Below, in pieces: positions 29,680-50,650 of a stretch of DNA of 64,000 nt (the stretch's first letter is position 1; each line of letters begins with the position of its first letter). The position numbers and the translations under genes are program-made. The DNA is from a virus, in IMG/VR virus record IMGVR_UViG_3300042691_041718, positions 32,001-96,000 of that record; one strand, written 5' to 3'. Below the pieces are notes generated by a model. That model did not search any database. It saw only the letters and a list, made by a program, of their open reading frames with translations, and had not been told where the DNA came from.

Positions 29680-30339
29680 ATGGAGTTATTCTATTTTGAC
29701 ATAGAGTGTGTTGGATCATATAAAGATTATGAAACCTTTTGTTTAGAAGATGAGAGAGGTTCTAAACTATTTAGTGAGAAATATAAAAGAATGAGTTGGG
29801 ATCAAAAATACGACTCTGTTGATGATGCTTATATAAAGCAAAGTGGTATTATAACCACTTATGGTAAGATATGTTGTATATCATTTGGTTATGTTAGTGA
29901 ATCAGGTGAGAAACAAATAAGAAGTTTTTATGGCGAAAATGAGAAGGAAATTGTAAATAACTTTAATGAATTACTTAAAAAAGTAGAATTAAAAAATTTA
30001 AAATTATGTGGATATAGAATTTTATATTATGATTTAATTTTCATTTTACATAAACTTCATAAGTATGGTATTAAACCTGCTAATATTATTTACTTATATG
30101 ATAAAAAACCTTGGGATGCTAGAATAGTCGATATAGCAGATGATTGGAAACAAAAATTTGCCTGGGCTTTTTCTTTTGATGAAGTTTGTTATGAATTAGG
30201 TGTTAAGTCACCTAAAGAGAATATGAATGGTTCTGAAGTACATAAATACTATCATAAAGGTAAATTAGAAGATATAAAAAGATATTGTGAAATGGATGTT
30301 AGTTCATCTATTGATGTTGGTAACATTCTTTATAATTAA
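29680..30339 (+). CDS. DnaQ-like 3'-5' exonuclease related to the PolB exonuclease domain
   Basis: YFDIE, GKICCISFG, DEVC..LGVKSPK, YCEMDV. Confidence 0.8.
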   Translation: MELFYFDIECVGSYKDYETFCLEDERGSKLFSEKYKRMSWDQKYDSVDDAYIKQSGIITTYGKICCISFGYVSESGEKQIRSFYGENEKEIVNNFNELLKKVELKNLKLCGYRILYYDLIFILHKLHKYGIKPANIIYLYDKKPWDARIVDIADDWKQKFAWAFSFDEVCYELGVKSPKENMNGSEVHKYYHKGKLEDIKRYCEMDVSSSIDVGNILYN

Positions 30340-31871
30340 ATCTTATTTATAATTCTAATTGTTTTATCTATATTCTCGTTGAAAAATTTTAATTCATCAT
30401 CATTTGATGGTGTTGAATCAGTTAATATATCTTTTAATGTTTTTATTTGATCTAGATAACCAACTTCTTTAACAACATCTAAAATCATATTCATTCTTTT
30501 TCTTATAACAAAAAGATCATCTAAATCTTCTATTATATTAGGTTTTATCTTCTTTGTAACTAGTTCACCTAATTGGAATATTTTATTTAGGACTTCTTTT
30601 CCTAATTCACTATTCATTCCCTTAGTTAAACTATCGAATTTTGATTTTTTAGTATGTAGTCTCTGAATTATTTCAAAAATCAACTTAACTTTTAAATCAG
30701 TATCTAAATTTGTACTAATTTGATTAAAATTTATTAAAGTTAATTTAGCAGCCAAATCTCTAACGTTATCACTAGATTTATGATCTCCTATTTCATTTGA
30801 AATTCTATCTGTTTGTGATGAAAAATATTTAGTTACTTCAGTTTTAGAATCACCATTTAAAGTTGAGTACCATTTACGTAATTTATCCATATAAAAGTTA
30901 GGTCTTTCTTCTTCTTCTTCTATATTTTTATCTTCTTTAATTTTAATTAGTTTATCTAAATCTAAAGCTGAGTTTGATATATCAAACATAATCCATTTAT
31001 TGAAAAGTACCTTATCAAATAATGAGTTGAAATTATCAGTATTAGCCATTTTCAATATTCTATTATTAAAATTAGTCTTTCTAATTTCTTCATTTGAAAG
31101 TAATGCTGTTGCACCACTTCTCATTTCTTCTCTACTTGATTTAATATTCTTTCTATTTTTAGAAGTGTCTAATTTAGAAGTATTAAAAACGATAGCAAAT
31201 TGTGATTCACTTAAACTCTTTTTAGTAAATGCGTCATTTGAATCTATTTTTTTATTCCATAACTCTTCTCCATTATTTTCGGGTTTTAATGACCATATAG
31301 TCCAATCACTATCAACTAAACTCCAAGATCTATTACCCCAATCTGTCCAATCTTCATTATCTGGTTCTGAGCCTTCTAAATAACAATCTTCATCACTATA
31401 AATGGCATACATCCTTACTCGATCACCATTAGGTTCAATATAAAGTGTGGCACGTGTTTTAACATCATCATCAAATTCGTCAAAATTAATGAATATCTTA
31501 TCTAAGTGGTTTATCAATCCACTCCTAAAATCATCTCTTAATTCACTAAAATAGCTATATTCTTTGTCTTCTGTGTAACCAGTTCTGGATTTCAACGCTA
31601 CTCCATCAGTTAAAGATATATTTATCAAATTAGCATTGGTATCTAACCAAAACTTATAGATTTTATCATTACCTTCTACTTTATCAAAAGCTTTATTGAA
31701 TGTTAAATACTCAAAATATTCATCTTTTAGTTCTGAATATGGAAAATCAATTTCATCACAAATACTCTTAACTTTATTTAAGAAAAGTATTTTAGATTCC
31801 TTTGATAAATATCTTAATGTTTTAGATAATAATTGTGATTTAAATGCCTCGAATAACTTTATGTGTTTCAT
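30336..31871 (-). CDS. Tagged paralog family member 1 (MKHIKLFEAF), unknown function
   Basis: Conserved blocks shared with 32905, 34662 and 49052. Confidence 0.7.
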   Translation of the reverse strand: MKHIKLFEAFKSQLLSKTLRYLSKESKILFLNKVKSICDEIDFPYSELKDEYFEYLTFNKAFDKVEGNDKIYKFWLDTNANLINISLTDGVALKSRTGYTEDKEYSYFSELRDDFRSGLINHLDKIFINFDEFDDDVKTRATLYIEPNGDRVRMYAIYSDEDCYLEGSEPDNEDWTDWGNRSWSLVDSDWTIWSLKPENNGEELWNKKIDSNDAFTKKSLSESQFAIVFNTSKLDTSKNRKNIKSSREEMRSGATALLSNEEIRKTNFNNRILKMANTDNFNSLFDKVLFNKWIMFDISNSALDLDKLIKIKEDKNIEEEEERPNFYMDKLRKWYSTLNGDSKTEVTKYFSSQTDRISNEIGDHKSSDNVRDLAAKLTLINFNQISTNLDTDLKVKLIFEIIQRLHTKKSKFDSLTKGMNSELGKEVLNKIFQLGELVTKKIKPNIIEDLDDLFVIRKRMNMILDVVKEVGYLDQIKTLKDILTDSTPSNDDELKFFNENIDKTIRIINKI

Positions 31872-31872
31872 A

Positions 31873-31904
31873 TTTGTATATATTAAATAATTTTTTTATT
31901 TTTG
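31873..31904 (+). promoter_or_regulatory. Bacteroidota-type promoter, overlapping a divergent late motif
   Basis: TTTG (31873)-N20-TATTTTTG (31897). Confidence 0.65.
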
Positions 31905-31919
31905 TGAAAAAGACTGATT

Positions 31920-32369
31920 ATGTTCTTACAAACTGAAATGACAATGAAAGCTTTTGATATAGTTTCAAAAGAATTTGATGGTAAAACCGATAAAGCTGGA
32001 AAACCTTATATAGGACATTTAACACGTGTGGCTTCTAATGTATTAGGTAATTCTAATATAAGAGAGTTATTAACTACAATCGCACTTTTACATGATTTAG
32101 TTGAAGATACCGATTGGACTGAAGAAGACTTACGAAAAGAATTTCCAGATGAAGTTGTTGATGCTGTTATTGCTTTAACAAAAGTTGAAGGTCAAAATTA
32201 TGAAACTTATATAAATAATTTAATCTCAAATAAGTTAGCAATTCATGTTAAATTATCCGACTTAAAAGATAATATGGATGTAACACGATTACCTGAATTA
32301 GGAGATTACGAATTAAAACGATTAAAGAAATACCACACAATTTATAATAAATTAATAAAACTAGTTTAA
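31920..32369 (+). CDS. HD-domain hydrolase (RelA/SpoT hydrolase-like, Mesh1 type)
   Basis: DKAGKPYIGHLTRVA, ALLHDLVEDT, VKLSDLKDN.D..R. Confidence 0.8.
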   Translation: MFLQTEMTMKAFDIVSKEFDGKTDKAGKPYIGHLTRVASNVLGNSNIRELLTTIALLHDLVEDTDWTEEDLRKEFPDEVVDAVIALTKVEGQNYETYINNLISNKLAIHVKLSDLKDNMDVTRLPELGDYELKRLKKYHTIYNKLIKLV

Positions 32370-32875
32370 TGAAGAAACTAATATTTTTCCATGGGTATGG
32401 TGGTGAACCTATTCCATTTATAACCGAGTTATTTAAGTATCTTGGTTACGAAACCATCCAACAATACATTGATTATGATTATGAATGGGATCTTGATGAA
32501 TGTAAATCAATAACAGAAGAGTCTATTGAATTGTCAAAAGATTGTGATGTTATAATTGGTTTAAGTCTTGGTGGCTATACTGCTAACTTAATTGCTAACA
32601 AATTAAGAAAAAATTGTATCTTAATCAACCCTGGTATAGATAGAGATAGATCTCAATTAGAGATAAAAGATTTTAACTATCCGCTTGAAAAAAATGATAT
32701 AAACTTGGAGGTTTTCTTAGGTGCTAGAGATTTTCAAATACCAAACCATTACACAACTGAATATTTAGAAAGGAATGGTATTAAAGCTCGTATTGAGGTT
32801 TTAGAAGATATGTACCATGTTTTCAATGATGAACAGTTTGTTAGAATTGTTAAAATGAGCAATTTTTTCAAATAA
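32369..32875 (+). CDS. Alpha/beta hydrolase (YqiA-like esterase)
   Basis: FFHGYGG, nucleophile elbow GLSLGG, INPG, D, H.F. Confidence 0.75.
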   Translation: MKKLIFFHGYGGEPIPFITELFKYLGYETIQQYIDYDYEWDLDECKSITEESIELSKDCDVIIGLSLGGYTANLIANKLRKNCILINPGIDRDRSQLEIKDFNYPLEKNDINLEVFLGARDFQIPNHYTTEYLERNGIKARIEVLEDMYHVFNDEQFVRIVKMSNFFK

Positions 32876-32906
32876 AAAAAGTGAGTAGTTTAACTACTCA
32901 CTTTTT
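32874..32906. terminator. Bidirectional intrinsic terminator
   Basis: AAAAAAAGTGAGTAGTT-TAACTACTCACTTTTT between convergent genes. Confidence 0.75.
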
Positions 32907-34665
32907 AAGGTATTCTTTTTATAACTTCTTCTATTTCATTAAGAGTTTTTATATAAGCTTCTAATGTATCATTATCAATATCATCAGATGAAAGTCCTTT
33001 AGCATAATAAATTATTCTATCTTTTCTGTCATTGAAACTATATCTTGGTTTATTTATTAATTCATTAATAGAGTTTAATCTGTTTAGAGCTATCTCCATA
33101 TCAGTTTCATCATTGATATCTTTTTTAACTTTAGAAAGGACTATTTCACCAACTTCAATTAGTTTAGTTGCTAATTTTTTATTATTTGGTTGTAACTTTG
33201 CTATTCTTCCAAGAGCATCTGTTTTAAGACTGTTTGAGTATTTTAAGATGTTGTGAATGTCATCTACTTGTGTTTTTTTTGATAAAGACCCAACATTTGA
33301 AAAATAATTAACATCAGATAGTGTCATTTTAGCTAGTAATTCTCTATCATCAGCGTGTCCACTAATTAACCCATACTTACTTCTATTCTTTTCAAAAGCA
33401 TCAATTATTCTATTTCTTTCTGTTGTAGATGATGTATTATATAGTGCTTGTAACCTATCAAAGTATTTAATTCCCGGATCCTTTTTGTCTTTGTTATCCC
33501 AAATATTTACAAGTTTTTGTATTTTCTGAATAGTATCTTTCAACTCGAAGAATAAGATATACTTATCGAATAACAATCTACTGAATAAAGAATTAAAACT
33601 TTCGATATTAAATTCTTTCTGAGCAATCTTCATCAATCTATTTTCTAAATTACTCTTTTTAATCTCTTCTGGATCTTTTAATCTTTGAGCTCCCATTCTA
33701 GCCTTGCTTCTATCACTTTTAATATCACTTCTTTTATAGAATTCAGAGTTTTTTAATTTACCAGTATCGAAAACAATTGCGAAGTCAGCTTCTGATTTTT
33801 CAGAGAGAGCATTACCTGTTTTTATATCTTTGTTGTATAAGAAGTAGTCAATTTCATCACTATCTTTTTTATCATCATTTAGTTTTACCTTTAGCTCATC
33901 AAAAAGATCATATCTCGTTCCACTTCCAGCAGTTAATTGCCAATAGTATCTACCAATATGTGAATATTGATTTCTTAATTCTCTTGATGGTGAGGATCCG
34001 TCTTTTGCACGATTATTGTGTATAGCAAAATAAGCATTTTCATACTCATCGAACACTATAACACCAGTTGTTGTTACACGACCCTCTTTGAAAACAATTG
34101 GTGTTCCATTTGGTATTTTAAAATTTACACTGGATAAGTTTTTAATACTAACATATCCCTCTTTATCTAAGTTTCCAAATTGAGCACCTTTTAATTTTGT
34201 GGGTCTACCATCAGTGATTGTTATTTCTTTTAGATCACCATCTTTAGTGATCCAGAATTTAATCAATTCATAATTTTGTGGAATTCCTTCTCCAGAAGAA
34301 ACAGTCATCATTCCAGTTCCTTTACATTTAGTACAATCAACTTTTCTGGTTCCACTTCCCCATTTTCTATTAATTTTACCACCTTTACAAGTCACACCTT
34401 CAATTCCTTTATCATTAAATAATTCAGTTGAAGTAGCATCACACTTTTTAGTTTCTTCTTTAGAACTAATAACTTCTTTAACTGCCTTTTTAAATGGTAG
34501 GTATTGAAAGAAGTCATCACTTATTTTTGAATAAGGGAAATCTATATTATCACAATAACTTTTTACTTTTTTTAAGAAAGTTTTTTTACTATCTTCAGAT
34601 AAAAAATTTAAAGTCTTTGGTAGTATATTGGATTCAAAAGCCTCAAATAATTTTATAAACTTCAT
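32905..34665 (-). CDS. Tagged paralog family member 2 (MKFIKLFEAF), with DnaJ-type zinc-finger-like insert
   Basis: CDATS...CKGGK...CTKCKGTG plus the family blocks. Confidence 0.7.
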   Translation of the reverse strand: MKFIKLFEAFESNILPKTLNFLSEDSKKTFLKKVKSYCDNIDFPYSKISDDFFQYLPFKKAVKEVISSKEETKKCDATSTELFNDKGIEGVTCKGGKINRKWGSGTRKVDCTKCKGTGMMTVSSGEGIPQNYELIKFWITKDGDLKEITITDGRPTKLKGAQFGNLDKEGYVSIKNLSSVNFKIPNGTPIVFKEGRVTTTGVIVFDEYENAYFAIHNNRAKDGSSPSRELRNQYSHIGRYYWQLTAGSGTRYDLFDELKVKLNDDKKDSDEIDYFLYNKDIKTGNALSEKSEADFAIVFDTGKLKNSEFYKRSDIKSDRSKARMGAQRLKDPEEIKKSNLENRLMKIAQKEFNIESFNSLFSRLLFDKYILFFELKDTIQKIQKLVNIWDNKDKKDPGIKYFDRLQALYNTSSTTERNRIIDAFEKNRSKYGLISGHADDRELLAKMTLSDVNYFSNVGSLSKKTQVDDIHNILKYSNSLKTDALGRIAKLQPNNKKLATKLIEVGEIVLSKVKKDINDETDMEIALNRLNSINELINKPRYSFNDRKDRIIYYAKGLSSDDIDNDTLEAYIKTLNEIEEVIKRIP

Positions 34666-36305
34666 ACTTTTTCTATTACATTTTTCATTCTATTACAGAT
34701 TCTACTAATTTCTTCCGGTGTTTTTGTTGTTAAACCAACATAATTTATATGACGGATACTACCTAATCTAAAATTGGACCATTCATATCTTTTATTTCTA
34801 ATTAGATCCTCAATAGTTTTTATTTTAGCGACTAATATTTCAGCATCATCGATAGTTTCTAGTTTACCAAAAGATTTCAATTTATTATAAATAACATTAC
34901 TGATTTCTTCCATGTGACTTATTAAAACTTTGTGTTTATCATCGGCTTCTGCCTTAACAGTTTCAATAGTTTTTAAGTTGTTTGAGTTATTAGTTATTTC
35001 TCTTCTAAAATATGATTTTAGTGAATCAGCTAGATTTTTTATTTCAGCTTCAGGTTCTACATAACCACCTCTCTTTTTCTTAGCCTTTTCAATTGCTTTT
35101 ATCAATTTAACATATTTATTTAAGATGTTGTCTAATATATCTGATAGTTCACCTTGTTCAAGCATCTTGAAAAGAACATTTTTAAATCCTAATATTCTGA
35201 AGAAATAAGTATCGAAGTTGGATACATCTAATTTATCAGATGAGATTTCGCTTAATTTAGAAATGTATCTATCAATGTTTTGTTTTTTGATCTCTTCTGG
35301 TTTTATAAATGATAAAGCTCCTGATTTTTGAGTTTTTCTACCAGAAATAATCTCTGATTTTTTCGGTAAGTCAAGTCCTTTTAATTTATCAACGTCTAAT
35401 ACAATAGCAAATTTAGCATCCGTTAAACTTTCTTTAGTTAAATTTCTTGTTCTGAAGGCTCTATCACCAACATTTTTATAAAACTCGGTTTCACTAGAAA
35501 TAGTCTTTCCTCCTGAATAATCAAATATAGTTACATATGAATCACCACCAATTGACCAAGAATAATTTCCATAATCTCTCCAATTACCATCAGGTGAAGA
35601 TCCACTCTTACCATCGTTATTGTGTATAAAGTATCTACCACCACCTCGCACAAATAAATATCCATTATCAAATCTTCCTCTTTGATAATCATTTCTACTG
35701 AAGTATATCTTACCAGGATAAACTCCATCTTTTAATCTTTGATTGAATAGGTTTCTCATTCCTTTTTCTTCCAACTCTCTAATATCACCATGATATGATA
35801 GATAACTCAATCTTTGTTCTTCACTTTCTTCTTTTGGTGAATCTATCTTAGATTTGGAAATAGTTATTAAATTACCCCCTTCATCTAACCAAAATTTAAA
35901 AACATTTTGTGGAAGTTTTTTATCTTTCCCATCTGGTGTTCCAACTTTACCAGTTCCTTTACAAACAGGACATTCAACATTTCTAGTGCCTTTACCCCAT
36001 TTCTTAGCTAATTTACCAGCTCTACATTCACTATCTTCAACTCCTTTATCACCAAATACTTCAATAGATTTGGCTTTACAATCTACCTGGTCTCCTTTTT
36101 TACCCTTTTCAACTCTATAATTTAAAGCTGATTTATAAGGTAGGTATTCAAAAACCTCATCAGTTATTTTAGATTGTGGTATATCATATTCTCTTGATAT
36201 ATGATCAATCATACCTAAGAAATTGGGTTTCCCGTTTTTTATATAATTTAATGTTTTAGAAATTACATTAGATTCAAATGCTTCGAAAAGTTTTATATAC
36301 TTCAT
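34662..36305 (-). CDS. Tagged paralog family member 3 (MKYIKLFEAF), with DnaJ-type zinc-finger-like insert
   Basis: CKAKS...CRAGK...CPVCKGTG plus the family blocks. Confidence 0.7.
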   Translation of the reverse strand: MKYIKLFEAFESNVISKTLNYIKNGKPNFLGMIDHISREYDIPQSKITDEVFEYLPYKSALNYRVEKGKKGDQVDCKAKSIEVFGDKGVEDSECRAGKLAKKWGKGTRNVECPVCKGTGKVGTPDGKDKKLPQNVFKFWLDEGGNLITISKSKIDSPKEESEEQRLSYLSYHGDIRELEEKGMRNLFNQRLKDGVYPGKIYFSRNDYQRGRFDNGYLFVRGGGRYFIHNNDGKSGSSPDGNWRDYGNYSWSIGGDSYVTIFDYSGGKTISSETEFYKNVGDRAFRTRNLTKESLTDAKFAIVLDVDKLKGLDLPKKSEIISGRKTQKSGALSFIKPEEIKKQNIDRYISKLSEISSDKLDVSNFDTYFFRILGFKNVLFKMLEQGELSDILDNILNKYVKLIKAIEKAKKKRGGYVEPEAEIKNLADSLKSYFRREITNNSNNLKTIETVKAEADDKHKVLISHMEEISNVIYNKLKSFGKLETIDDAEILVAKIKTIEDLIRNKRYEWSNFRLGSIRHINYVGLTTKTPEEISRICNRMKNVIEKV

Positions 36306-36378
36306 AATATAATAATATTTTTACTCTTTATATATTAAAAAGTAAAACTTATTTTGTATATTTGTGAAAAATATTATT

Positions 36379-36648
36379 ATGAGAATATTAGATTTTGGTA
36401 GATATAAAGAGATAACATCAGCTAAATTCCGTGTCAAGAGAATAGATGAATCTAGTGATGAGACTTGTTATTATGTCTTACTTTCAATTAATGGTGAAAG
36501 GATAAATGGTGAGATATTCTGTGATTCTAATGGTGAGTTAGAATGTTATCAGTTCTATAATTCAGAAGGTAGATGTATAAGTGAAATATACGGAACTGAA
36601 GTTGTGGAAGATTTAGTGAGAAAGAAATTAAAAAAATTAAGAAAATGA
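36379..36648 (+). CDS. Hypothetical protein, first gene of an early operon
   Basis: ATG 36379 preferred; TATATTTG at 36357-36364. Confidence 0.55.
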   Translation: MRILDFGRYKEITSAKFRVKRIDESSDETCYYVLLSINGERINGEIFCDSNGELECYQFYNSEGRCISEIYGTEVVEDLVRKKLKKLRK

Positions 36649-37232
36649 GTAATATATGGTTTACTTCAGATACGCATTTCGGGCATACAAATATAGCTGG
36701 TCCCAAAATATCTAGATGGAATTCTGGATATAGAAATTTTAATTCAGTTCATGAGATGAACATGGCTCTTATTGATGGTATCAATAAGTATGTCAAAGAA
36801 AATGATATACTATATCACTTAGGTGATTGGAGCTTTGGTGGAATTCACAACATCAAATTATTTAGAGATTCAATTGTTTGTAAAAAAATTCATCTTATTT
36901 TAGGAAACCACGACCAGCATATAGTTGATAAAGAAGTAAAATTCCACGATTCTTCTTTTAACCCAATTGAACTTTTTTCATCAGTTCAAGATGTTTTACA
37001 AGTTTCACATGGAAAACATAAATTTTTCATGAGTCATTATCCACATTTATCTTGGGATGGGAGTCATAAGGGGGTTATTATGCTACATGGTCATGAACAC
37101 TCATATTTTGATCATTTAAATAAAAACACTTTAAGAATGGATGTTGGTGTCGATTCCGCTAAAATAGTATTAGGTGAATATAGACCTTTTAGTATAGAAG
37201 AGGTTATTGATTTTAATAGTAGAAAAAAATAA
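36645..37232 (+). CDS. Calcineurin-like metallophosphoesterase
   Basis: TSDTHFGH, YHLGD, GNHD, SHYP, HGHEH, DVGVD. Confidence 0.9.
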   Translation: MSNIWFTSDTHFGHTNIAGPKISRWNSGYRNFNSVHEMNMALIDGINKYVKENDILYHLGDWSFGGIHNIKLFRDSIVCKKIHLILGNHDQHIVDKEVKFHDSSFNPIELFSSVQDVLQVSHGKHKFFMSHYPHLSWDGSHKGVIMLHGHEHSYFDHLNKNTLRMDVGVDSAKIVLGEYRPFSIEEVIDFNSRKK

Positions 37233-37295
37233 TTCAGATAGCACATCATTAGGGAGTTATTCACTTTTAATATATAATTAAAAGAATAAACTCTT

Positions 37296-38174
37296 ATGAG
37301 AAAGTGGAATAATGATGAATTGGATTTTTTGTTATCTAATTATGCTAAAGAGGGAATTAGCTTTTGTTCTAATTTTCTTAATAGAACACAAAGAAGTGTT
37401 CAAAAAAAGGCCTCAAAACTTGGATTGAAAGTTGACATTGAAACGATTAAGTCTCTTAGATCATCAACTGTAAAATGTAGTTGGGAGAAAAGAAATGACT
37501 CACAAAAAAACCTAAATAAGGTATTAAACGTGTCAATTGATGACATTTATACTAATCCTACATTTTTATATATTTTAGGTTATATATGGGGTGATGGTTA
37601 TATTCATAATGGTGGTCTTGGTAAATCAAATTCGGTATCGTTAGAAATTATTAAAGATGATGGTTTGGATATTTATGAAAAGATGATGTCGGTTATAAAT
37701 TGGAATATTTCATATAGAAAAAGAAATAATAGAAAAGAGCAAATTTGTTTTTCTATATATAATAGAATATTAATTGAATATTTAGTATCTTTAGACTATC
37801 ATAAGAAATCTTATAATTATCCTATAATTTTAGATAATTTAAGTTTTGATATGAAAAGGTATTTTTATATGGGATTGTCGGATGCTGATGGTTGTTTTTA
37901 TTATAATTCGAAACATTATAATACACAATATTCAATATCATCCACCATTAATCAGGATTGGAGACACATCTCTGATATTTTTGATTATTTAGGTATAGAA
38001 TATAAAATTAAAAAGAGAGAGACTATAAATAAAAGTGGTAATATTCACACACACTCTTTGGTTTTAATATCCAATAAAAAAGATGTTTTAAAATTTGGAG
38101 ATTATTTATATGGTGATGATTTTATAGGATTGAAAAGAAAATATGAAAAATATCTTTATATAAAAAATTTGTAA
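37296..38174 (+). CDS. Free-standing LAGLIDADG homing endonuclease with N-terminal HTH-like segment
   Basis: YILGYIWGDGYI and FYMGLSDADGCF; N-terminus W..DE..FL..NY. Confidence 0.85.
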   Translation: MRKWNNDELDFLLSNYAKEGISFCSNFLNRTQRSVQKKASKLGLKVDIETIKSLRSSTVKCSWEKRNDSQKNLNKVLNVSIDDIYTNPTFLYILGYIWGDGYIHNGGLGKSNSVSLEIIKDDGLDIYEKMMSVINWNISYRKRNNRKEQICFSIYNRILIEYLVSLDYHKKSYNYPIILDNLSFDMKRYFYMGLSDADGCFYYNSKHYNTQYSISSTINQDWRHISDIFDYLGIEYKIKKRETINKSGNIHTHSLVLISNKKDVLKFGDYLYGDDFIGLKRKYEKYLYIKNL

Positions 38175-38206
38175 TTTAATATTACTTTTTTATTTTTATA
38201 AAATTA

Positions 38207-38413
38207 GTGTTGATCATCATGAATAAGAGTCAAATTATAGAAGTTAGTTTACAATTCAGAAAAATTATTATAAACTCCAATTATGGTTTGCCTAATAAGT
38301 TTCTAAATATAGATGATGAATATTATTCAGAAACTTTTAAGTTAAAAATACTTTATAAAAGATTTCATAAAATAGAAAAGATATGGAAAAGTGGGAAGAC
38401 GCACAATCAGTAG
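38207..38413 (+). CDS. Small hypothetical protein
   Basis: ORF track; start uncertain. Confidence 0.4.
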   Translation: MLIIMNKSQIIEVSLQFRKIIINSNYGLPNKFLNIDDEYYSETFKLKILYKRFHKIEKIWKSGKTHNQ

Positions 38414-42483: not shown

Positions 42484-42531
42484 AAAAAAGTTATTATATT
42501 TGTATTATATATAAAAAATAACATTACCTAT

Positions 42532-44025
42532 ATGACAAAAATTGTAACAAGGATAGCACCTTCACCCACGGGACCATTCTCGCATCTTGGAAATTTGAGA
42601 ACTTTAATTTATAACTATTTTCTTGCTAAGAAAAATGGTGGGAAGTTCTATGTGCGGTTAGAAGACACTGATAGAGATCGTTACACACCTTCTTTTCTCG
42701 ATTATTTCAAGGATATGTGTGATTGGTTAGGAATAGTTCCAGATGGTTCTTATTGGAACCCAGATCCATCAATTGGTTCTTTTGTACAATCAGAAAGAGA
42801 TTATTCTGATAAAGTTAAATTTTTGTTAAATAACGGATTGGCTTATTACGCTTTTGATACTAAAGATGAATTAGAAGTTCTTAAATCAAAAGGTTTAAAA
42901 TATGATGCGACTACTCGTATGTCTATGAATAACTCATTGACTAATCCATCAACTGATGTAATGTTGCAAAGTGGTGTTCCGTATGTTATCCGTTTCGCAG
43001 TTGAACCTAATGTTGATATTACTTTTGATGATGCTATCTTAGGAAGTATCACAATCAATACCAATACTTTAGATGATAAAGTTTTGATTAAATCAAATGG
43101 TATTGGTTCTTATCATCTTTGTAATGTTTGTGACGACCATGATATGGGTGTTACTCACGTACTTAGAGGTAACGAGTGGGTTAATAGTACACCATTCCAT
43201 GTAATCCTTTATAAGGCATTTGGTTGGGATGTACCTACATTCGCTCATTTGCCACTAATTATGAACCCAGATGGTAAAGGTAAGTTATCTAAAAGAACAG
43301 CAATGAAATATGGTATTCCAATTGCTCCACTTGGTTACACAGATGATTCTGGTAATTATGTTGATGGTTGGAAAGATTTAGGATTTGATCCAAAAGCTTT
43401 TATCAATTCATTGGCGTTAATTGGATGGAACCCAGGAGGTGATGTTGAAATTATGTCTATGGATGATATGATTAATTCATTCTCTTTAGATAGAGTTCAT
43501 AAATCAGGAGCTCGTTTTGATATGGATAAAGCAAAATGGATAAATGCTAATTATTTGAGAATGACTCCAAATAACGATTTGAAACCATTTATCAATATTA
43601 AGGATGATAGATATTCTGATGATAAGTTGAATAAAATCATTGACTTGGCTAAAGAAAGATCTGAATTCAAACATGATTTGAATACAATTGTTGACCTTTT
43701 CTTTAATGATCCGGTTATTACAGATATTAAAAAAATTGATGATAATTTTATCACAGTATTTTCTAATGATGTTGATGGATTTATCAAGAGTTGTACAAGT
43801 GTTAACTTTGATGTTCCAATGGATATCAAAGATTTGATTAACAACATTTGTAATAACAATGGTATCAAAATGGGTAAAGTGATGCCAGGGTTGAGAATGG
43901 CTCTTGTGGGTGGTATCTCTGGACCAGACTTAATGACTACTATGAGTATCTTAGGAATGAGAGAAACTATTAGTAGATTAATTAAATGTGTATCAATTTG
44001 TTATAATGATACTATGACAAAATAG
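42532..44025 (+). CDS. gltX: Glutamyl-tRNA synthetase
   Basis: RIAPSPTG..HLGN (HIGH), RLEDTD, DDHDMGVTHVLRG, GKLSKR (KMSKS), GWNPG, C-terminal anticodon-binding domain with LRMAL.G...GPDL. TATATTTG at 42495. Confidence 0.92.
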   Translation: MTKIVTRIAPSPTGPFSHLGNLRTLIYNYFLAKKNGGKFYVRLEDTDRDRYTPSFLDYFKDMCDWLGIVPDGSYWNPDPSIGSFVQSERDYSDKVKFLLNNGLAYYAFDTKDELEVLKSKGLKYDATTRMSMNNSLTNPSTDVMLQSGVPYVIRFAVEPNVDITFDDAILGSITINTNTLDDKVLIKSNGIGSYHLCNVCDDHDMGVTHVLRGNEWVNSTPFHVILYKAFGWDVPTFAHLPLIMNPDGKGKLSKRTAMKYGIPIAPLGYTDDSGNYVDGWKDLGFDPKAFINSLALIGWNPGGDVEIMSMDDMINSFSLDRVHKSGARFDMDKAKWINANYLRMTPNNDLKPFINIKDDRYSDDKLNKIIDLAKERSEFKHDLNTIVDLFFNDPVITDIKKIDDNFITVFSNDVDGFIKSCTSVNFDVPMDIKDLINNICNNNGIKMGKVMPGLRMALVGGISGPDLMTTMSILGMRETISRLIKCVSICYNDTMTK

Positions 44026-44043
44026 GTATTTGAATAGTAATAT

Positions 44044-44074
44044 ATATGAAAGGTGGATAAACCACCTTTCATAT
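44044..44074. other. Perfect 13-bp hairpin without a U-tract
   Basis: ATATGAAAGGTGG-ATAAA-CCACCTTTCATAT, between gltX and the next gene, overlapping a late motif. Confidence 0.6.
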
Positions 44075-44081
44075 TACTATT

Positions 44082-44651
44082 ATGTCTAGTAGAGAGGAGT
44101 TAATTAGAGTTGTTAGAAGAACACAGACATTCATATCAATATTACTATTTTTTATAGTTTTTTTTATTTGCTGGAAATTTACTAAATTTGATATAACTCA
44201 AGTTCAGATATCTATTTGGGGTAGAAGTGGATTTTTGGGTAGAGTTTGGAACACAGCTGTTTGTACTTTTGCCATTTCTATTTTCATAAACTCGGTTTTA
44301 TACCTTAGAAATAATTTAAGAGTAAGATATAAAAATATATTTTACTTATTATTTACATTTGTTTCTATTTGTCTATTTATGGTTGGGTTTTATAATATGG
44401 ATTGGGGTGCTATTCATAATTATTCCGCTGGTTTATATTTCTTTTTTTATCCTTTAACAATTTTTTCATTTTCTCACTTAAATAGAAAATATCTTTCTTA
44501 TAAGGATTGGTTACATTATGTCATACTTTCTGTTGGCATGGCTATAATTCCAATGATATTAATATCAATGTTTAAGGGTATGGCTATTGCTGAAATAGCA
44601 CATACTTTCTTAGTTATTCTTTATAATATAAAACTTTCAATGTCTGATTAG
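44082..44651 (+). CDS. Multi-pass membrane protein (DUF998-like)
   Basis: About six hydrophobic segments; QISIWG and IHNYSAGLYF. Confidence 0.55.
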   Translation: MSSREELIRVVRRTQTFISILLFFIVFFICWKFTKFDITQVQISIWGRSGFLGRVWNTAVCTFAISIFINSVLYLRNNLRVRYKNIFYLLFTFVSICLFMVGFYNMDWGAIHNYSAGLYFFFYPLTIFSFSHLNRKYLSYKDWLHYVILSVGMAIIPMILISMFKGMAIAEIAHTFLVILYNIKLSMSD

Positions 44652-44684
44652 GATATAATAAAACAATTCATTACTTTTGTAAAT

Positions 44685-44978
44685 ATGTATTTTGTGAAGT
44701 TTGAAAATATAGGAGTCTTTGTTAAAGAGAGTGGTAAACTTGTTAGTTCACCATGGAATCTTAAACATGAAATTTTTCAATTAGAAGAAGGTGAGAATTT
44801 CAAAAAAATGATAAGAAAGAGTCCTTTTGCTAATTGTAAAAGAATAGATTATTTTGATCCAAATAAAAAAGAGGCAATCCCAAGGTATATAATGGATTAC
44901 ATCTTAGACTTGGAAGAAGTGAAGGCTATTATAATTTTAAAAGAGCGAGATAATAAAATAAACCAAATATTAGAGTAA
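44685..44978 (+). CDS. Hypothetical protein ending RDNKINQILE
   Basis: ORF track; TACTTTTG at 44672. Confidence 0.6.
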   Translation: MYFVKFENIGVFVKESGKLVSSPWNLKHEIFQLEEGENFKKMIRKSPFANCKRIDYFDPNKKEAIPRYIMDYILDLEEVKAIIILKERDNKINQILE

Positions 44979-45412
44979 TGAAATTAGGTTTGGATATACA
45001 CGGAGTTATTGATAGTAAGCCTGAAATATTTGCTTTTCTCAGTAAGAGTGTTATTGATGCGGGTGGAGAAGTACACATCATCACTGGTGGTACTTGGAAT
45101 GATGAGCTAAAAAATTTAGTTGAACAGAGTGGTGTTATCTATACACACTCATTTTCTGTTTATGATCATTTGAAAAGTATTGGTGCTAAACAAATGGGTA
45201 GAATTAAATTCCCTGATGGTACAACACAAAGAAAGTTTGATAATGATTTGTGGGATAGTATTAAAGGTGAATATTGTGAGAAGTGGGGAATAGATTTACA
45301 TATTGATGATACAGAGGTTTATTCTAAATATTTTAAAACTCCATTCTTACTTTTTAAATCTAATGACGACTTAGAAAAATTGTCGCATATAGATATAAGA
45401 AATTTGATGTAA
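44978..45412 (+). CDS. HAD-superfamily hydrolase
   Basis: LGLDIHGVID, IITGG, HIDD. Confidence 0.7.
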   Translation: MKLGLDIHGVIDSKPEIFAFLSKSVIDAGGEVHIITGGTWNDELKNLVEQSGVIYTHSFSVYDHLKSIGAKQMGRIKFPDGTTQRKFDNDLWDSIKGEYCEKWGIDLHIDDTEVYSKYFKTPFLLFKSNDDLEKLSHIDIRNLM

Positions 45413-45415
45413 AAT

Positions 45416-45919
45416 ATGAATTATGGAACTGAGGAAAGTCCAATAAAGTTATTTAGTATAGAACAAGGAAGAGAATACTTAAATAATTTAAGATGTGAGA
45501 ATGGTGATTATATAATTTACCATCGTTTAGGATCTACTTATATAAATGATAATATATCTGATATATATGAGATTTACACATCATCACACAAATTGGATAA
45601 AATATACATAACTTATGTTGATGAGTGGTTGACTGATTTAAGACCACCGACAGGGTATTTATTTGAAAGTCCATTTCTTTCTGATTTAACGGAGCTATCA
45701 GGAGAGTATATATTTGATGATACAGATTATAATGATGAAGATGGTTATTTAAAACAGTCATTAACTGAGTCAGGTGGGTATAATATGATGGATGATGATT
45801 TTCCACTTGGTGTATTAGATAAATTAATGAAAGAGTTTGTCATTATTGGAAATAAAAGTAAGATAATTGCTGAAATAATTTCTTTTAGAAGAGATAGAAA
45901 ATTAGATGATATATTATAA
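45416..45919 (+). CDS. Acidic hypothetical protein ending RDRKLDDIL
   Basis: ORF track. Confidence 0.6.
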   Translation: MNYGTEESPIKLFSIEQGREYLNNLRCENGDYIIYHRLGSTYINDNISDIYEIYTSSHKLDKIYITYVDEWLTDLRPPTGYLFESPFLSDLTELSGEYIFDDTDYNDEDGYLKQSLTESGGYNMMDDDFPLGVLDKLMKEFVIIGNKSKIIAEIISFRRDRKLDDIL

Positions 45920-46326
45920 TGTCTTTGAAAAAATATAAAAGTAAATTTGATATAATCGAGAACGATATTGACAAACTTGATATTCGACCATATAATCACT
46001 GTAATGGTCAGTGGTGGTGGGGATTTTATTATGATTGGGATGATGATTATGATGATTATGAGTATGAGTGGGAGTATATTGAATGGGATTATATAAAAAT
46101 ACCGGAAATTGATTGGGGTTATAAAGTTATCAATAAATCATTTCGTAACTGGCGTATCAGTGATCCAAGTGTACCTGGAACTTATGTTGATATGGAAAGT
46201 GTTTATGGTAAATCCGAAATGAGAAATCGTAAGATAGATATGATTTTAGGTTTAAGAGAACCTAATTACCAAACAACTGTAACTCTTGGAGATTTTTTTG
46301 ATAGAATTGATAAACATTCAAATTAA
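45919..46326 (+). CDS. W/Y/D-rich hypothetical protein with subterminal RNRKIDMIL
   Basis: WWWGFYYDWDDDYDDYEYEWEYIEWDY. Confidence 0.6.
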   Translation: MSLKKYKSKFDIIENDIDKLDIRPYNHCNGQWWWGFYYDWDDDYDDYEYEWEYIEWDYIKIPEIDWGYKVINKSFRNWRISDPSVPGTYVDMESVYGKSEMRNRKIDMILGLREPNYQTTVTLGDFFDRIDKHSN

Positions 46327-46359
46327 TTCCTTATATTTGTAAAACAAAAGAGATAAGTT

Positions 46360-46542
46360 ATGAATGGTTCAGTAGATAGTATAGTTTATGATATGATTGA
46401 AAATACAACTTTGGATATCAATCAATATAATGATTTTTTAAGATTGATGGAAGATCATAAAAATAAATTGTATATGGAACAACTAAATCCGAATAGTGTT
46501 CAAACTATTTCTGATGAAGATTTCAATGATTTACCTTTTTAA
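46360..46542 (+). CDS. 60-aa acidic protein ending in an SSB-like tail (DFNDLPF)
   Basis: ORF track; TATATTTG at 46332. Confidence 0.6.
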   Translation: MNGSVDSIVYDMIENTTLDINQYNDFLRLMEDHKNKLYMEQLNPNSVQTISDEDFNDLPF

Positions 46543-46543
46543 T

Positions 46544-46616
46544 GGTTGAGTGTATCGAGTGGTTAGAGATTGCCCCGCAAAGGCAAGCACGTTGGTTCGA
46601 ATCCAATCCTCAACCT
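46544..46616 (+). tRNA. tRNA-Cys(GCA), non-canonical
   Basis: Acceptor GGTTGAG/CTCAACC, D-loop GG, anticodon stem TTGCC/GGCAA with loop CCGCAAA, T-arm GTTGG-TTCGAAT-CCAAT, discriminator T. Confidence 0.75.
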
Positions 46617-46621
46617 CAAAT

Positions 46622-46655
46622 AATCCACACTAATTTTTTTGGTGTGGATTTTTTT
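46622..46655 (+). terminator. Intrinsic terminator after the tRNA
   Basis: AATCCACAC-loop-GTGTGGATTTTTTT. Confidence 0.7.
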
Positions 46656-46680
46656 ATTATATTTGTAAAAAATAATCATT

Positions 46681-47319
46681 ATGAAATACGCAACATTTAG
46701 ATACTTATACCCGCCTCGTCCAGAGAACGCAATTCCTAGTTCTGAACTTTATTATCATGATAATGGTTCGATGGTTGCTCAACCAAAATTAAATGGTTCA
46801 AACTGTCTTATCTTCACAAATGGTGAAGTTGTTTATAAGATGAATAGACATAATGATAGACTTACTAGATTTGAAATTAAAGATGAAGAAGTACTCAATT
46901 TATATAAAGGTACTGGTGGATGGACTGTATTAAATGGTGAATACTTAAACAAGAATAAACAAGATGAAAACAGAAAATCATTTAATCATAAATTGATTTT
47001 GTTTGATATTTTGGTTAATGATGGTGATTATTTAATTGGTAAAACATTTGAACAGCGAATTAAATTGTTAGATGAAATGTTTGGTCAAAACGAATCAGAA
47101 AAAGAATATCTTTATTCAATTTCAGATAATGTTTATCGTGTTAAATCATATGAAAATAATTTTAGTGTGTTGTTTGATAAACTAACATACAATAACGAAC
47201 TTTTAGAGGGTCTTGTGTTGAAAAGAAAGAATTCTAGATTAGAAATAGGAAACACTCCAAAAAACAATTCACGTAGTCAAATTAAATGTAGAGTGACTAC
47301 TAAAAACTATAAATTTTAA
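46681..47319 (+). CDS. ATP-dependent polynucleotide ligase-like nucleotidyltransferase (adenylation domain only)
   Basis: Motif I QPKLNG, III LNGEY, IIIa LFDIL, IV EGLVLKR, V KCR; no OB domain. TATATTTG at 46658. Confidence 0.7.
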   Translation: MKYATFRYLYPPRPENAIPSSELYYHDNGSMVAQPKLNGSNCLIFTNGEVVYKMNRHNDRLTRFEIKDEEVLNLYKGTGGWTVLNGEYLNKNKQDENRKSFNHKLILFDILVNDGDYLIGKTFEQRIKLLDEMFGQNESEKEYLYSISDNVYRVKSYENNFSVLFDKLTYNNELLEGLVLKRKNSRLEIGNTPKNNSRSQIKCRVTTKNYKF

Positions 47320-48071
47320 TTATTACTTTTTTTATAGTTATCAATTGCCCATAATGGTTGTAGATTTGATAAAGAATTGACTATTGATGGTGGTGTTTCT
47401 TTATCAAATTTACTAACTGGTATTATATGATCAATATGCCATTCACCCCAATTATCCCAAGACATGCCTTCTAAAAATTTACTTTCAATATTATCTCTAA
47501 ATTCTTTCGATGAGTATCCTAATATATCAATAGTACTCTCTGATTTTTTAATATTAAAATAGTATAGTACCCTACGTAGTGAGTTTCTCCAAGCTACTAT
47601 ATGTGGATTTTTACTTGACCAATTATAAATATACTTTCTGTGTTTTTCTTTATGTTCTGGTAGATCTTTAATGGATTCATAGTATTTCTTTTTCCAATTT
47701 CTAATATAATCTTTATTCTCTTCATAGTATCTCCGTTTAGATATTTTTACCTTTTCTGAATTATTCTTTCTATATTTTCTACCAGCATTTGAAATTTTAT
47801 CTCTAAGTTCTTGATCTGTATTATATCTATTCCTTCGTCTTTCATTAATTTCTTCTTTATTTGACTCGTACTTTTCTTTATACTTTTCAAGTAAATCATA
47901 TTTATTTTCTTTATAATAATTATTGAGATATTTTTTCATTTTATCTCTATTTTTAATTCTATATTCTCTTTCACAATCTTTACATTGAGTTCTTAATCCA
48001 TCATTTGATATCTTTAATTTATTAAAGTTTATCAGATCTTTATATTCTCCACATTTTTTACATTTTTTCAT
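47316..48071 (-). CDS. HNH homing-type endonuclease (same family as 28943..29677)
   Basis: CKKC...DGLRTQCKDC, ILGYS..EF...IESKF..GMSWDN, WHIDHIIP, NLQPL. Confidence 0.8.
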   Translation of the reverse strand: MKKCKKCGEYKDLINFNKLKISNDGLRTQCKDCEREYRIKNRDKMKKYLNNYYKENKYDLLEKYKEKYESNKEEINERRRNRYNTDQELRDKISNAGRKYRKNNSEKVKISKRRYYEENKDYIRNWKKKYYESIKDLPEHKEKHRKYIYNWSSKNPHIVAWRNSLRRVLYYFNIKKSESTIDILGYSSKEFRDNIESKFLEGMSWDNWGEWHIDHIIPVSKFDKETPPSIVNSLSNLQPLWAIDNYKKSNN

Positions 48072-48168
48072 ATATTATATATTTAATTTTGACTACTTCG
48101 TTATTAAATGAAATTATAGTAAACCAATACTCATTTTTTAATATATAAGAAAATAGTATATAATTAAA

Positions 48169-48735
48169 ATGGAGAAATTTTCGAGATTAAAACCAAAGAC
48201 TAATTCCGAACCAAAAGATGATGTAGTTTTTGATGGTGATAAATTTAAAATAATTAAGTATGAAGATTGGAGTATTGTAAAAGGTGGTGATGCTATCATC
48301 TGTATTCCAATTTTAATTGAAACAAATCAAATTATTCTGAGATATGAATATGTACCAACATATAAATATGTTGAAGGTACTGAATATCACTTAACTTTAG
48401 TTGCTGGTGGTATTGAAAAAGGAGAAGATCCACTTACAGCTCTTTTTAGAGAATTGGAAGAAGAAGCTGGTATTGTAGTTAGAGAAGATTATTCACCAGA
48501 GGAATTGAGACCACTTTTCGCGAGTAAAGGTCAAACAGCTAAATTTTATCCATTTATTTTACCACTTAATGAAAGAGATTATCATGAAGTGATTGCTAAA
48601 GGTGATGGTTCTAAAGCAGAGGCTATGAGTAAGGCAGTCAAAGTTGATATTAAATATTTAGATTCTCTTAACGCATCTGATATTTTTACAGATTATATGT
48701 TATTAAAAGTTAAAGAATATTTAAACTTAAAATAA
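48169..48735 (+). CDS. Nudix hydrolase (ADP-ribose pyrophosphatase-like)
   Basis: Nudix box AGGIEKGEDPLTALFRELEEEAGI. Confidence 0.85.
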   Translation: MEKFSRLKPKTNSEPKDDVVFDGDKFKIIKYEDWSIVKGGDAIICIPILIETNQIILRYEYVPTYKYVEGTEYHLTLVAGGIEKGEDPLTALFRELEEEAGIVVREDYSPEELRPLFASKGQTAKFYPFILPLNERDYHEVIAKGDGSKAEAMSKAVKVDIKYLDSLNASDIFTDYMLLKVKEYLNLK

Positions 48736-48764
48736 ATATTTTATATAAAAAATAAAAGATTATT

Positions 48765-48986
48765 ATGTTTGAAAGTAGATTGAGAAATAATGGATTATAT
48801 TCAGTTTCAGAATATAAAGGTAAAACTTTGGAAGAAGCTACTAAATATGCTGAAGAAGGAGGGTATATAGTAAGAGTTACTGAAACCGATGGTAATTCTA
48901 TTATGGTTGACGCTTTAGATAACAAAACAAATAGATTAAATTTTCGAGTTAGAGGAGGTTTAGTTATTGATGTTTATGGAGGTTAA
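48765..48986 (+). CDS. Small protein resembling peptidase inhibitor I78 / potato inhibitor I fold
   Basis: YKGKTLEEA......RV..DG.....D....RLNF.V.GG.V..V.GG. Confidence 0.5.
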   Translation: MFESRLRNNGLYSVSEYKGKTLEEATKYAEEGGYIVRVTETDGNSIMVDALDNKTNRLNFRVRGGLVIDVYGG

Positions 48987-48987
48987 T

Positions 48988-49020
48988 AAAAAAACTCACT
49001 CATTAGAGTGAGTTTTTTTT
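48988..49020. terminator. Intrinsic terminator
   Basis: AAAAAAACTCACTC-ATTA-GAGTGAGTTTTTTT. Confidence 0.75.
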
Positions 49021-49051
49021 ATTTTTATAAAAATAATTTAATATATAAGAT

Positions 49052-50650
49052 ATGAAGTATATTAAATTATATGAAGCTTTTTCATCAGACATCTTAAACA
49101 AGATGATTAAGTATTTAAAGTCTGAGAATATAAGTAATTCGAGTTTATCCAAATTTAAATCAGACCTATTAAAAGTTTTTTCAAATTTAGATATTCCTAT
49201 TAGTGATATACCAGATCAAAATGTTGAATATGGTTCTAAAATTAAAATTTGGAAAATTTCCCCAAAGGGAGATAGTAATATTTCAGGATTAAAATTCTGG
49301 TTTAATCGTGATGGAAGTTATGTTGGTTATTCGGGTGTCGGAAACAAACTTATTTCATTATCAGAGGGTAATGAAATTCCGGATGAATTATTAGAACGTG
49401 TTAGAAATGGTTATTTTTCAAATATTCCAAAAACTGGTAACTTAACTTCTGTTGAAAAAACGGTTGATAATTATAATCAATTGAATAGAGGTGATAAAGT
49501 AATTGCATTTTTATATGATATGCCGTTTAGTGAAGATAGAGACTTAGTTCATAATGATGAAGCAACAGATTGGACAGGTCCGATGACATTTGGTACTATT
49601 TGGAAAAGAGAAAGAGATAGAAAAATCTTTATTATACATGATAATGAGGAGGCTGATGGATCAACAGATGATGATAGTAGGGAGTGGAATCAATATGGTA
49701 GTTATAGCTGGGGTATAGGTAATCCAACTACGTGTTTTGGTGACCATTATTATTTAAGTTTATATACACCTTCTGATAAACCACTCTCATATGGAAAGGA
49801 GGGTGTTGAAGTTGATAAATCAAATCCTGATAATTTTAATCTAAAAGTAAGTGGTGATTATTTATCATCTTCTGGTAGTATGAAAGATATTATAAATGAT
49901 GCTGACTTTGGAATCTATATAGAATTAGTTGATTTAAAAACAAAATCAATAAAAGATATTAAAGATAAAAGAACAGAATTGAAATCTGGTATTATTGGAG
50001 GACCACATGGTTTATCCAATGAGGAATTAAAAGAAATTAATATCAAAAGATATACAGACTTAGCATTTAAAAGATCTGGTATATCAATAGAAGGTGTTGA
50101 TTTTAGTAAATTAAATGATTTCTTCAGTAATTTATTATCTGATTATTTTATATTAAATATAATTCTCCAGGATAGAACTTATTACGACTTTTTGAGTTTG
50201 ATATCATCAATAAGAAACCTGGTCATTTATATAAAAGAAAATAGAGATGAGAATTATATAAAAAGTGGATTTAAAAATATTGAATCATATTTGAATAGTT
50301 ATAAGTCATTAAAAAGTAAGTTTAACACTGAAATTGATTCTAAAATAAAATTAGTTTCAGAATTGGATAGTAGATTTGGTGATTTGATAAAACAAATCAT
50401 TGAAGTTGGTTCAGTTTTTAAAAATAAAATTAAATCAAGTGAATTTATGAGTCTTTACTCACTTAAAATATTAAATAGAAATCTTGATAATATTAAAAGA
50501 ACAATTGAAACTGATATTAGTTATAATGATTTAAACTATATTAGAACATTTGCGGGAGTAAATAGAGATGAATTACACACATTTAATTTTGATGGTGTGA
50601 ATTATGAAGATTCAATGGAATTCTTCAAAGCATTAAAAACAATGATATAA
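49052..50650 (+). CDS. Tagged paralog family member 4 (MKYIKLYEAF)
   Basis: Family blocks HDNEEADGS...W..YG.YSW, ADFGIY, IKDKR.E.KSG, EELKEIN.KRY. Confidence 0.7.
   Translation: MKYIKLYEAFSSDILNKMIKYLKSENISNSSLSKFKSDLLKVFSNLDIPISDIPDQNVEYGSKIKIWKISPKGDSNISGLKFWFNRDGSYVGYSGVGNKLISLSEGNEIPDELLERVRNGYFSNIPKTGNLTSVEKTVDNYNQLNRGDKVIAFLYDMPFSEDRDLVHNDEATDWTGPMTFGTIWKRERDRKIFIIHDNEEADGSTDDDSREWNQYGSYSWGIGNPTTCFGDHYYLSLYTPSDKPLSYGKEGVEVDKSNPDNFNLKVSGDYLSSSGSMKDIINDADFGIYIELVDLKTKSIKDIKDKRTELKSGIIGGPHGLSNEELKEINIKRYTDLAFKRSGISIEGVDFSKLNDFFSNLLSDYFILNIILQDRTYYDFLSLISSIRNLVIYIKENRDENYIKSGFKNIESYLNSYKSLKSKFNTEIDSKIKLVSELDSRFGDLIKQIIEVGSVFKNKIKSSEFMSLYSLKILNRNLDNIKRTIETDISYNDLNYIRTFAGVNRDELHTFNFDGVNYEDSMEFFKALKTMI

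Follow-up and report, generated by a model that had tools for sequence, protein, structure and literature searches.

Background

Phage T4 carries proteins into its head by means of a capsid-targeting sequence, an N-terminal peptide of about 10 residues (MKTYQEFIAE; PMC8442874). This peptide is portable and receives a single cut by the head protease (PMC8442874, PMC5694885), and foreign proteins have been carried into the T4 head by it (PMC8442874, PMC5694885, PMC3012670). The cleavage sites of T4 Alt are given as ITE-6 and LTE-619 (PMC5694885). In the giant phages SPN3US and phiKZ, sets of paralogous ejection proteins share an N-terminal propeptide with protease motifs, and the ejection proteins gp53 and gp54 of SPN3US are identical over their N-terminal 15 residues (PMC5694885). 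Here we describe a family of paralogous phage proteins that begin with a short conserved leader and contain a central segment exchanged between related phages. Four of the genes lie in a 64,000-nucleotide stretch (hereafter the window), which corresponds to bases 32001-96000 of a linear virus contig of 186,465 bp with a G+C content of 27.8% (IMG/VR record IMGVR_UViG_3300042691_041718). The contig is estimated by a genome tool to be 69% complete, and its nearest named record is the uncultured phage genome LR745206.1 (634,780 bp).

The T4 internal proteins IPI-III and Alt resemble the present family in having a short N-terminal leader that is common to otherwise unrelated proteins and contains I/L-x-E, and in forming a diverse, polymorphic set of proteins within one phage lineage, cargo in T4 and putative cargo here. 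A further likeness is the T4-type capsid gene of LR745206.1. However, the family is related to IPI or Alt neither in sequence nor in fold. It also differs from the ejection proteins of SPN3US and phiKZ, whose propeptides are mostly longer than 100 residues with A/S-x-E motifs and to which no homology was detected (PMC5694885). Those proteins are reported to have been placed in heads by mass spectrometry, whereas for the present family a place in the head is a proposal. Hundreds of the genes in a huge phage have no known function, and there are few leads on which of them contact the host directly.

A large family of proteins in uncultured huge phages

The four genes in the window encode P0001 (511 aa; 30336..31871, minus strand), P0002 (586 aa; 32905..34665, minus strand), P0003 (547 aa; 34662..36305, minus strand) and P0004 (532 aa; 49052..50650, plus strand). 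All six pairs among them matched in blastp comparisons (E 9e-9 to 3e-54), and the sole other match listed among the 138 window open reading frames (ORFs) of at least 40 aa had an E-value of 0.93. The original prediction, made from the letters of this DNA, was that these four ORFs form a family sharing ordered blocks. Every listed block was reproduced by the 43 invariant columns of a MAFFT alignment of the four proteins: the leader with S12/K17, D42-P44-S46-D50-Y55, K73-F74-W75, G167-S168...G179...W183, F225-I227, G253 and E261-E262-N267. With every pair at E ≤9e-9, the blocks align significantly and the four proteins are true paralogues, but the family is larger than predicted, as the contig holds at least five copies. 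A profile built from 56 family members recovered P0001-P0004 together with a fifth copy of 590 aa, encoded outside the window (contig 175989-177761, minus strand). The stop codon of P0003 and the start codon of the adjacent P0002 overlap in an ATGA (34662..34665, minus strand), from which we infer translational coupling of the two genes.

P0001-P0004 and the fifth copy belong to a large family, as yet without a name, that is found in uncultured huge phages. The 56-member profile matched 611 clusters (50% identity) at E ≤0.001, 371 of them at E ≤1e-30, among the 1.84 billion representatives searched. In a word-indexed protein collection, P0003 retrieved 76 relatives, several on contigs of 250-629 kb and none with a Pfam domain on record. 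Family members were seen in metagenomic phage contigs only, LR745206.1 included, and we recovered 36 related loci on viral contigs of up to 483 kb. The family does not map onto a characterized protein family in the collections searched: the window members had no match over the curated thresholds of Pfam, PHROGs, NCBIfam and PADLOC, the fifth copy had none in Pfam, NCBIfam or PADLOC, and the best hit of a profile search against PDB sequences had an E-value of 0.096. A literature search that covered its sources in part returned no description of the family. Anti-TRAP, the Brz zinc ribbon and GapR were dropped as candidates below cut-off (for GapR, 16.5 bits against the 22.6 required), and the labels 'UPF0335' and 'GbsR', which one source attaches to a few relatives, likewise derive from matches below cut-off. 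Fused longer forms of the family were searched for and none was found. Eight matches to shorter forms were read as fragments because their contigs are short, six being 945-1,511 bp in length and the other two 2,063 and 3,233 bp.

The family gene is single-copy in most relatives, in contrast to the five or more copies on this contig. In 32 of the 36 related loci, that gene is immediately preceded by a gene of ~555 aa, which we call c1, and the ends of the two genes overlap (for example, c1 at L009:4292-5995); the same arrangement is present in LR745206.1 (c1 at 572889-574553). A search of the window's contig did not find c1; any copy partnered by c1 that the phage may have would be in the portion of the genome that the contig lacks. 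The c1 protein has an invariant core (H..D..S.S..Y.SCQ.LY.G) and was unmatched in Pfam, PHROG, NCBIfam, PADLOC and PDB-sequence searches. We ruled out that c1 is a hidden paralogue of the family (hhalign probability 0.6%).

A quick maximum-likelihood tree, with SH-aLRT support only, separated the family into three clades. Clade A (support 93) comprised all 27 rows adjacent to c1; clade B (support 99) contained P0001, P0002 and P0003; and clade C (support 99) contained P0004, the fifth copy and the second copy of LR745206.1. Because the copies on the contig are split between two old clades, they did not arise in a recent local burst. Judged from this tree, the window copies are old paralogues without the partner c1.

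A central segment is exchanged between related phages

The variable part of these proteins is a central domain between the KFW and FAI blocks, located at residues 140-298 of P0003 (35412..35888, minus strand), 139-294 of P0002 (33784..34251, minus strand), 76-224 of P0001 (31200..31646, minus strand) and 84-285 of P0004 (49301..49906, plus strand). Across the five copies, the KFW-FAI stretch measures 149-245 aa. Pairwise blastp of this stretch detected little beyond a block of ~30-48 aa, G-S-x-P..W..G..W (HNN..GSSP..W..YG..SW in P0003), with the exception of a 129-aa alignment between P0001 and P0003 (E 6e-5). The segments between the blocks had been called unrelated, and this description is adequate for pairwise similarity; however, the family profile aligns most of the stretch to match states with few insertions, which indicates a centre that is strongly diverged rather than demonstrably non-homologous.

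We compared selection and mosaic structure in clade A relatives rather than in the window's own clades, because a metagenome scan for relatives of P0003 gave six distant loci, none of them close. In one clade A subclade, dN/dS was below 1 in every region, showing purifying selection throughout, and was higher in the centre (0.4-0.9) than in the conserved blocks (0.05-0.3). The loci L015 and L009 are 86-97% identical in DNA outside codons ~181-270 and 55-63% identical within them, while L015 and L017 are 91-95% identical within the same codons. Similarly, L012 falls to 45-62% identity in this central region relative to its near relatives L017 and L031. Two types of cassette, ~75 codons in length and with 42-49% protein identity to each other, are distributed discordantly with their flanks, and this discordance requires at least two exchanges. 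These identity patterns show, at the level of DNA comparison, recombinational exchange of a ~75-codon central cassette between related phages.

The window's own genes vary naturally in the same region. Contigs from four public runs were compared with P0002 and P0003 and contained 14 insertions or deletions, 12 of which are listed; all 12 listed fall in the central domains, at residues 178-271 of P0002 and 221-237 of P0003. In one natural variant, a segment of P0002 in the C-terminal helical domain (~residues 397-469; 33259..33477, minus strand) has 219 bases replaced by 276 others. The suggestion that this is a diversifying family is therefore borne out, both by the cassette swapped between related phages and by the central indels of P0002 and P0003.

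The G-S-x-P..W..YG..SW block had been viewed as a conserved binding pocket. It falls within the exchanged cassette, and its conservation is only moderate, with the G in 82%, the P in 83% and the two W in 73% and 77% of 149 sequences; two further positions of the block are aromatic in this set. A pocket is possible, although the conserved residues are structural in kind. T-even adhesins such as gp38 have hypervariable segments between conserved motifs, and these segments are recombined between related phages. The present family is similar to gp38-type adhesins in combining a conserved frame with a short exchanged hypervariable segment, but differs from them in fold and location.

The N-terminal leader

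The best-conserved stretch of the proteins is the N-terminal leader, MKYIKLFEAF in P0003 (36276..36305, minus strand), which is encoded at 34636-34665 (minus strand) in P0002, 31842-31871 (minus strand) in P0001 and 49052-49081 (plus strand) in P0004. Its consensus is MKxIKLFEAF, with L6, E8, A9 and F10 invariant in 56 sequences, and yet residues 1-12 are unanchored in the model, with a confidence below 50. Among 27 distinct genes, the L, E, A and S codons of the leader vary synonymously; synonymous variation under an invariant peptide indicates selection for the amino acid sequence rather than for the nucleotide sequence.

The leader is not restricted to this family. A strict leader pattern occurs seven times in the 186-kb contig and five times in LR745206.1, while the reversed pattern, used as a control, occurs in neither (0 and 0). 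Three of the seven matches on the contig are unrelated small ORFs. An unrelated ORF of 113 aa in the window (28337..28678, minus strand) starts with the leader in the form MKRIKLFEEF. The C-terminal 40 residues of this protein match PHROG 3666 (E 5e-9), and it may carry tags at both ends. Of the ORF families in the 36 related loci, 26 occur in five or more loci; in six of these families, 60% or more of the members have the leader, and a control for internal positions gave 0. Pfam domains are absent from all 10 leader-bearing ORFs that were tested but present in 32 of 71 window ORFs.

Residues 6-8 (LFE) are invariant and fit the I/L-x-E form of T4 head protease sites. Three other ORFs on the contig start with MIKKY(I/L)EFINE or MIKRYKQFITE (window 63764-64000, plus strand; contig 19509-19679 and 122334-123332), and these starts are closer to the T4 capsid-targeting peptide than is the family leader.

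Possible delivery in the virion

We tentatively favor an explanation in which the leader is an address tag, the virion delivers the proteins and the cassette recognizes a target, and consider this chain possible, though somewhat short of probable. The leader would act like the T4 capsid-targeting sequence, as a tag that can be moved between proteins and that docks the protein into the assembling head. It would be cut after the invariant Glu8 (L-F-E|A), and the proteins would be carried in the virion and pass into the host together with the DNA. The role of the frame and the helical domain would be to hold the protein in place, while the swapped subdomain would recognize a target that varies, be it a molecule of the host or one of host defence. 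With several copies, one genome would cover a wider range of targets. Head loading and injection are plausible by analogy, as the leader resembles the T4 sequence and is shared with unrelated ORFs. A more specific version seems unlikely as a whole. In it, a set of frame-plus-cassette proteins would be loaded into the capsid via the leader, and a small Tudor/SH3-like cassette would be a target-recognition head traded like tail-fibre tips. Receptor-binding-protein diversification would then have a counterpart among internal, injected proteins directed at host defence or take-over targets, with c1 as the fixed subunit that they serve.

Several observations weigh against virion delivery or against parts of the chain. 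Aligned in register, the family leader and the T4 leader agree at only 4 of 10 positions. Of the five copies, three are acidic (pI 5.2-5.6), whereas T4 internal proteins are basic. The family genes are surrounded by replication, repair and homing-nuclease genes rather than by head genes. A single conserved gene coupled to a partner, as found in most relatives, suggests a more core function than that of dispensable cargo. At least one of the leader-bearing families in relatives looks enzyme-like, its motif LIIVDVQ resembling isochorismatase-type hydrolases; it had no match in Pfam. The exchange of cassettes was found in one subclade only, as no central drop in identity was seen in the L034-L041 subclade, and it was not directly observed in the clades to which the window copies belong. 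Among the listed runs with near-identical DNA, none was an RNA run. Finally, neither the head protease family (PF03420) nor the capsid family (PF07068) was matched on the contig itself, although their lack says little because the contig is a fragment. A matching protease is assumed for this phage from LR745206.1. That genome encodes a T4 gp23-type capsid gene (E 7e-26), and a 727-aa ORF next to it has a weak match to the S77/T4 head protease family that is itself below cut-off (E 1e-4). On the contig, a peptidase at window 52642-53856 was considered as a head protease candidate and ruled out, as it matches M20-type peptidase T.

Some of the same observations would fit proteins that act unpackaged inside the infected cell, where they would take over the host or counter its defences, with a variable subdomain that follows the rapid evolution of a host protein. 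The leader would then have another purpose, for example to dock the proteins to one shared partner of phage or host origin, or to make translation start efficiently. The surrounding replication, repair and nuclease genes are of the early type, the leader is widespread on neighboring ORF families of relatives, and a variable cassette in multiple copies fits an arms race equally well. Also consistent with this alternative is an upstream motif, TAATATATA (or TTATATATA / AAATATATA), that is common to genes of every class. It precedes 71 of the 239 ORFs of the contig, and examples in the window lie upstream of 31871 (minus strand), 36305 (minus strand) and 49052 (plus strand). We rejected TAATATATA as a class-specific (late) promoter because it is found ahead of ORFs of all functional classes. 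The motif is mostly located exactly 13 bases or ~25-37 bases before the ATG, with a few instances farther away, and motifs that end 4 bases before the ATG suggest near-leaderless transcripts. However, the synonymous codons under the invariant peptide oppose a purely nucleotide-level start signal, an unanchored invariant N-terminal peptide on unrelated proteins resembles a sorting or docking signal, and the T4-like form of leaders on the contig points to the head. On balance, we consider action in the cell without packaging to be somewhat unlikely.

Exchange of a cassette between conserved flanks is typical of receptor-binding proteins, and the family members could accordingly be external parts of the virion, such as tail or baseplate accessories or adhesins, with a swapped subdomain that binds a host surface receptor in the manner of fibre tips. 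In relatives, a gene for a gp25-like baseplate wedge protein lies two genes away (PHROG E 4e-6; Pfam E 0.0065, below cut-off), and the coupled partner c1 ends in a repeat that looks leucine-rich in a reading of its consensus, which has no Pfam match. Yet the gp25-like gene stands alone beside a clamp-loader gene with no baseplate module, the window copies are far from any structural gene, the models have no fibre, beta-helix or trimeric coiled-coil features, and a cleavable leader of the head type would be out of place. An external location therefore appears distinctly improbable.

Whichever function applies, the family is large (611 clusters) and lineage-wide, and the contrast between its fixed frame and its exchanged module gives the search for specificity a definite starting point. 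Should the leader be a capsid address tag, as in the explanation that we favor, the T4 system of cargo loading would be widened in huge phages to large multi-domain proteins, and injected proteins could be listed from sequence alone. If it is not, the family would still supply a new recombining specificity module and a conserved partner, c1.

Predicted architecture and the zinc ribbon

AlphaFold modelling of P0003 gave a pLDDT of 72.6 for the whole protein (56 sequences) and a pLDDT of 79 with a pTM of 0.61 for residues 13-315 (149 sequences), in which 143 residues reached at least 90. The model begins with a low-confidence N-terminus, a short helical part and a beta ribbon around four cysteines; a beta-rich centre (135-304) and helices (316-546) follow. 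The helical C-terminal domain of P0003 (residues 316-547) is encoded at 34665..35360 (minus strand). The predicted layout is therefore a leader, an alpha/beta frame, a one-zinc ribbon in most members, an inserted variable beta subdomain and a helical C-terminal domain of ~230 residues. The frame consists of the N-terminal helices, the KFW strand, the FAI strand and the R..G..IK..N..Y linker. A 222-aa 'mini' member of LR745206.1 (L005:1255-1923) has frame blocks only: it retains the N-terminal part, a YWF strand, FALVF and R..K.G..NLKRY, and is without the ribbon, the centre and the helical tail. This protein supports an autonomous frame into which, or onto which, the rest was inserted or appended.

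The structure prediction and structural search proposed for each member thus provided models of P0003 with a beta-rich centre and a helical C-terminus, but no fold match. Foldseek searches of PDB and BFVD with both models returned nothing at E ≤0.001. A wide structure search with the whole model found generic helical bundles only, over residues 338-522 (vinculin, Z 6.0). With the model of residues 13-315, the best match had a Z of 4.8 (7s5j_A, rmsd 3.5, 97 residues aligned), and all matches to the frame, ribbon and cassette fall below the noise guide of this search (Z 7-8). About 30 of the 50 rows were papain-like by their entry titles (C39 peptidase, C39-like domain, CHAP, NlpC/P60, Cif, SpvD, UfSP2) and spanned residues ~11-303. 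A second structure search returned the papain-like theme and also placed residues 143-258 against extended-Tudor/SH3-like barrels (Z 3.4). As these matches are under the noise guide, we used them only as a picture of a frame with two inserted modules.

The frame weakly resembles C39-like or inactive papain-like domains (PDB 3zua, 7s5j and 3b79; Z 4.1-4.8, 94-97 residues aligned), and, as in C39-like domains, a catalytic cysteine is absent. Unlike those domains, it has two inserted modules, a long helical tail and no transporter context. There is no conserved catalytic Cys or His outside the four zinc ligands (P0004 has one Cys in total), and at the position of H228, 66% of the 149 sequences have Q and 12% have H; the family therefore does not belong to a peptidase family by its catalytic residues. 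The frame could also be a papain-like domain (C39-like or NlpC/P60-like) that has degenerated and lacks a catalytic triad; it would then serve as a peptide-binding adaptor, for example for the short tags on many proteins of these phages, rather than as cargo. Such a role would agree with the recurring papain-like theme and with the autonomous frame of the mini member, but is highly improbable given that no Z exceeds 4.8, that Foldseek found nothing and that neither Cys nor His is conserved outside the zinc ligands. Two further results were discarded: an ESM Atlas match to an Arr ADP-ribosyltransferase cluster scored 0.82, a value that the tool itself places at chance level, and the ESM Atlas model of P0001 (pLDDT 0.34) was useless.

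A Cys-rich insert had been noted in two members, and on the contig the CxxCxGxG motif is indeed present in P0002 and P0003 only. In P0003, the one-zinc ribbon comprises C76, C94, C112 and C115 and ends in CxxCKGTG (35949..36080, minus strand); in P0002, it comprises C75, C93, C111 and C114 (34312..34443, minus strand). The four cysteines are nearly invariant in the family, and CxxCxGxG occurs in 203 of 223 family sequences, once in 194 and twice in 9. It is absent from P0001 and from all members of clade C. By this distribution, the ribbon is an ancestral segment rather than an insert and was lost at least twice; the copies that lost it are P0001, P0004 and the fifth copy.

The CxxCxGxG motif and the hairpin-like ribbon are reminiscent of the central zinc finger of DnaJ (PF00684; PDB 7zhs and 2ctt). 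PF00684 matched 3 of 56 members (E 2.7e-4) and was found only in a scan at an E-value of 0.05, and the structural matches of model residues 57-117 to DnaJ zinc fingers (Z 3.6 and 2.1, 19-21% identity) are below the noise guide. Unlike DnaJ, the family has one zinc site instead of two and no DnaJ C-terminal domains. A J domain (HPD) had no Pfam match in the four window proteins or in the 56 scanned members.

Gene context

The gene content of the window is that of a large tailed phage. Its genes encode, among others, a UvsX-like recombinase, a ligase, a Nudix hydrolase and many homing nucleases. The window also encodes a ClpB-like two-ring AAA+ ATPase (3399-5588, minus strand) and a glutamyl-tRNA synthetase (42532-44025, plus strand). 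Near-identical DNA is present in lake and freshwater metagenomes from several studies.

Other genes of the window include one for an MgtC-family protein (7061-7504, minus strand) and an ORF of 2047 aa (57592-63735, plus strand) that has no PHROG match and in which a proprotein-convertase P domain is the sole known domain. Two genes bear inteins with intein splicing and LAGLIDADG domains: one encodes a flavodoxin-like/FMN-reductase-like protein (8517-10433, minus strand) and the other PhoH (55408-57273, minus strand).

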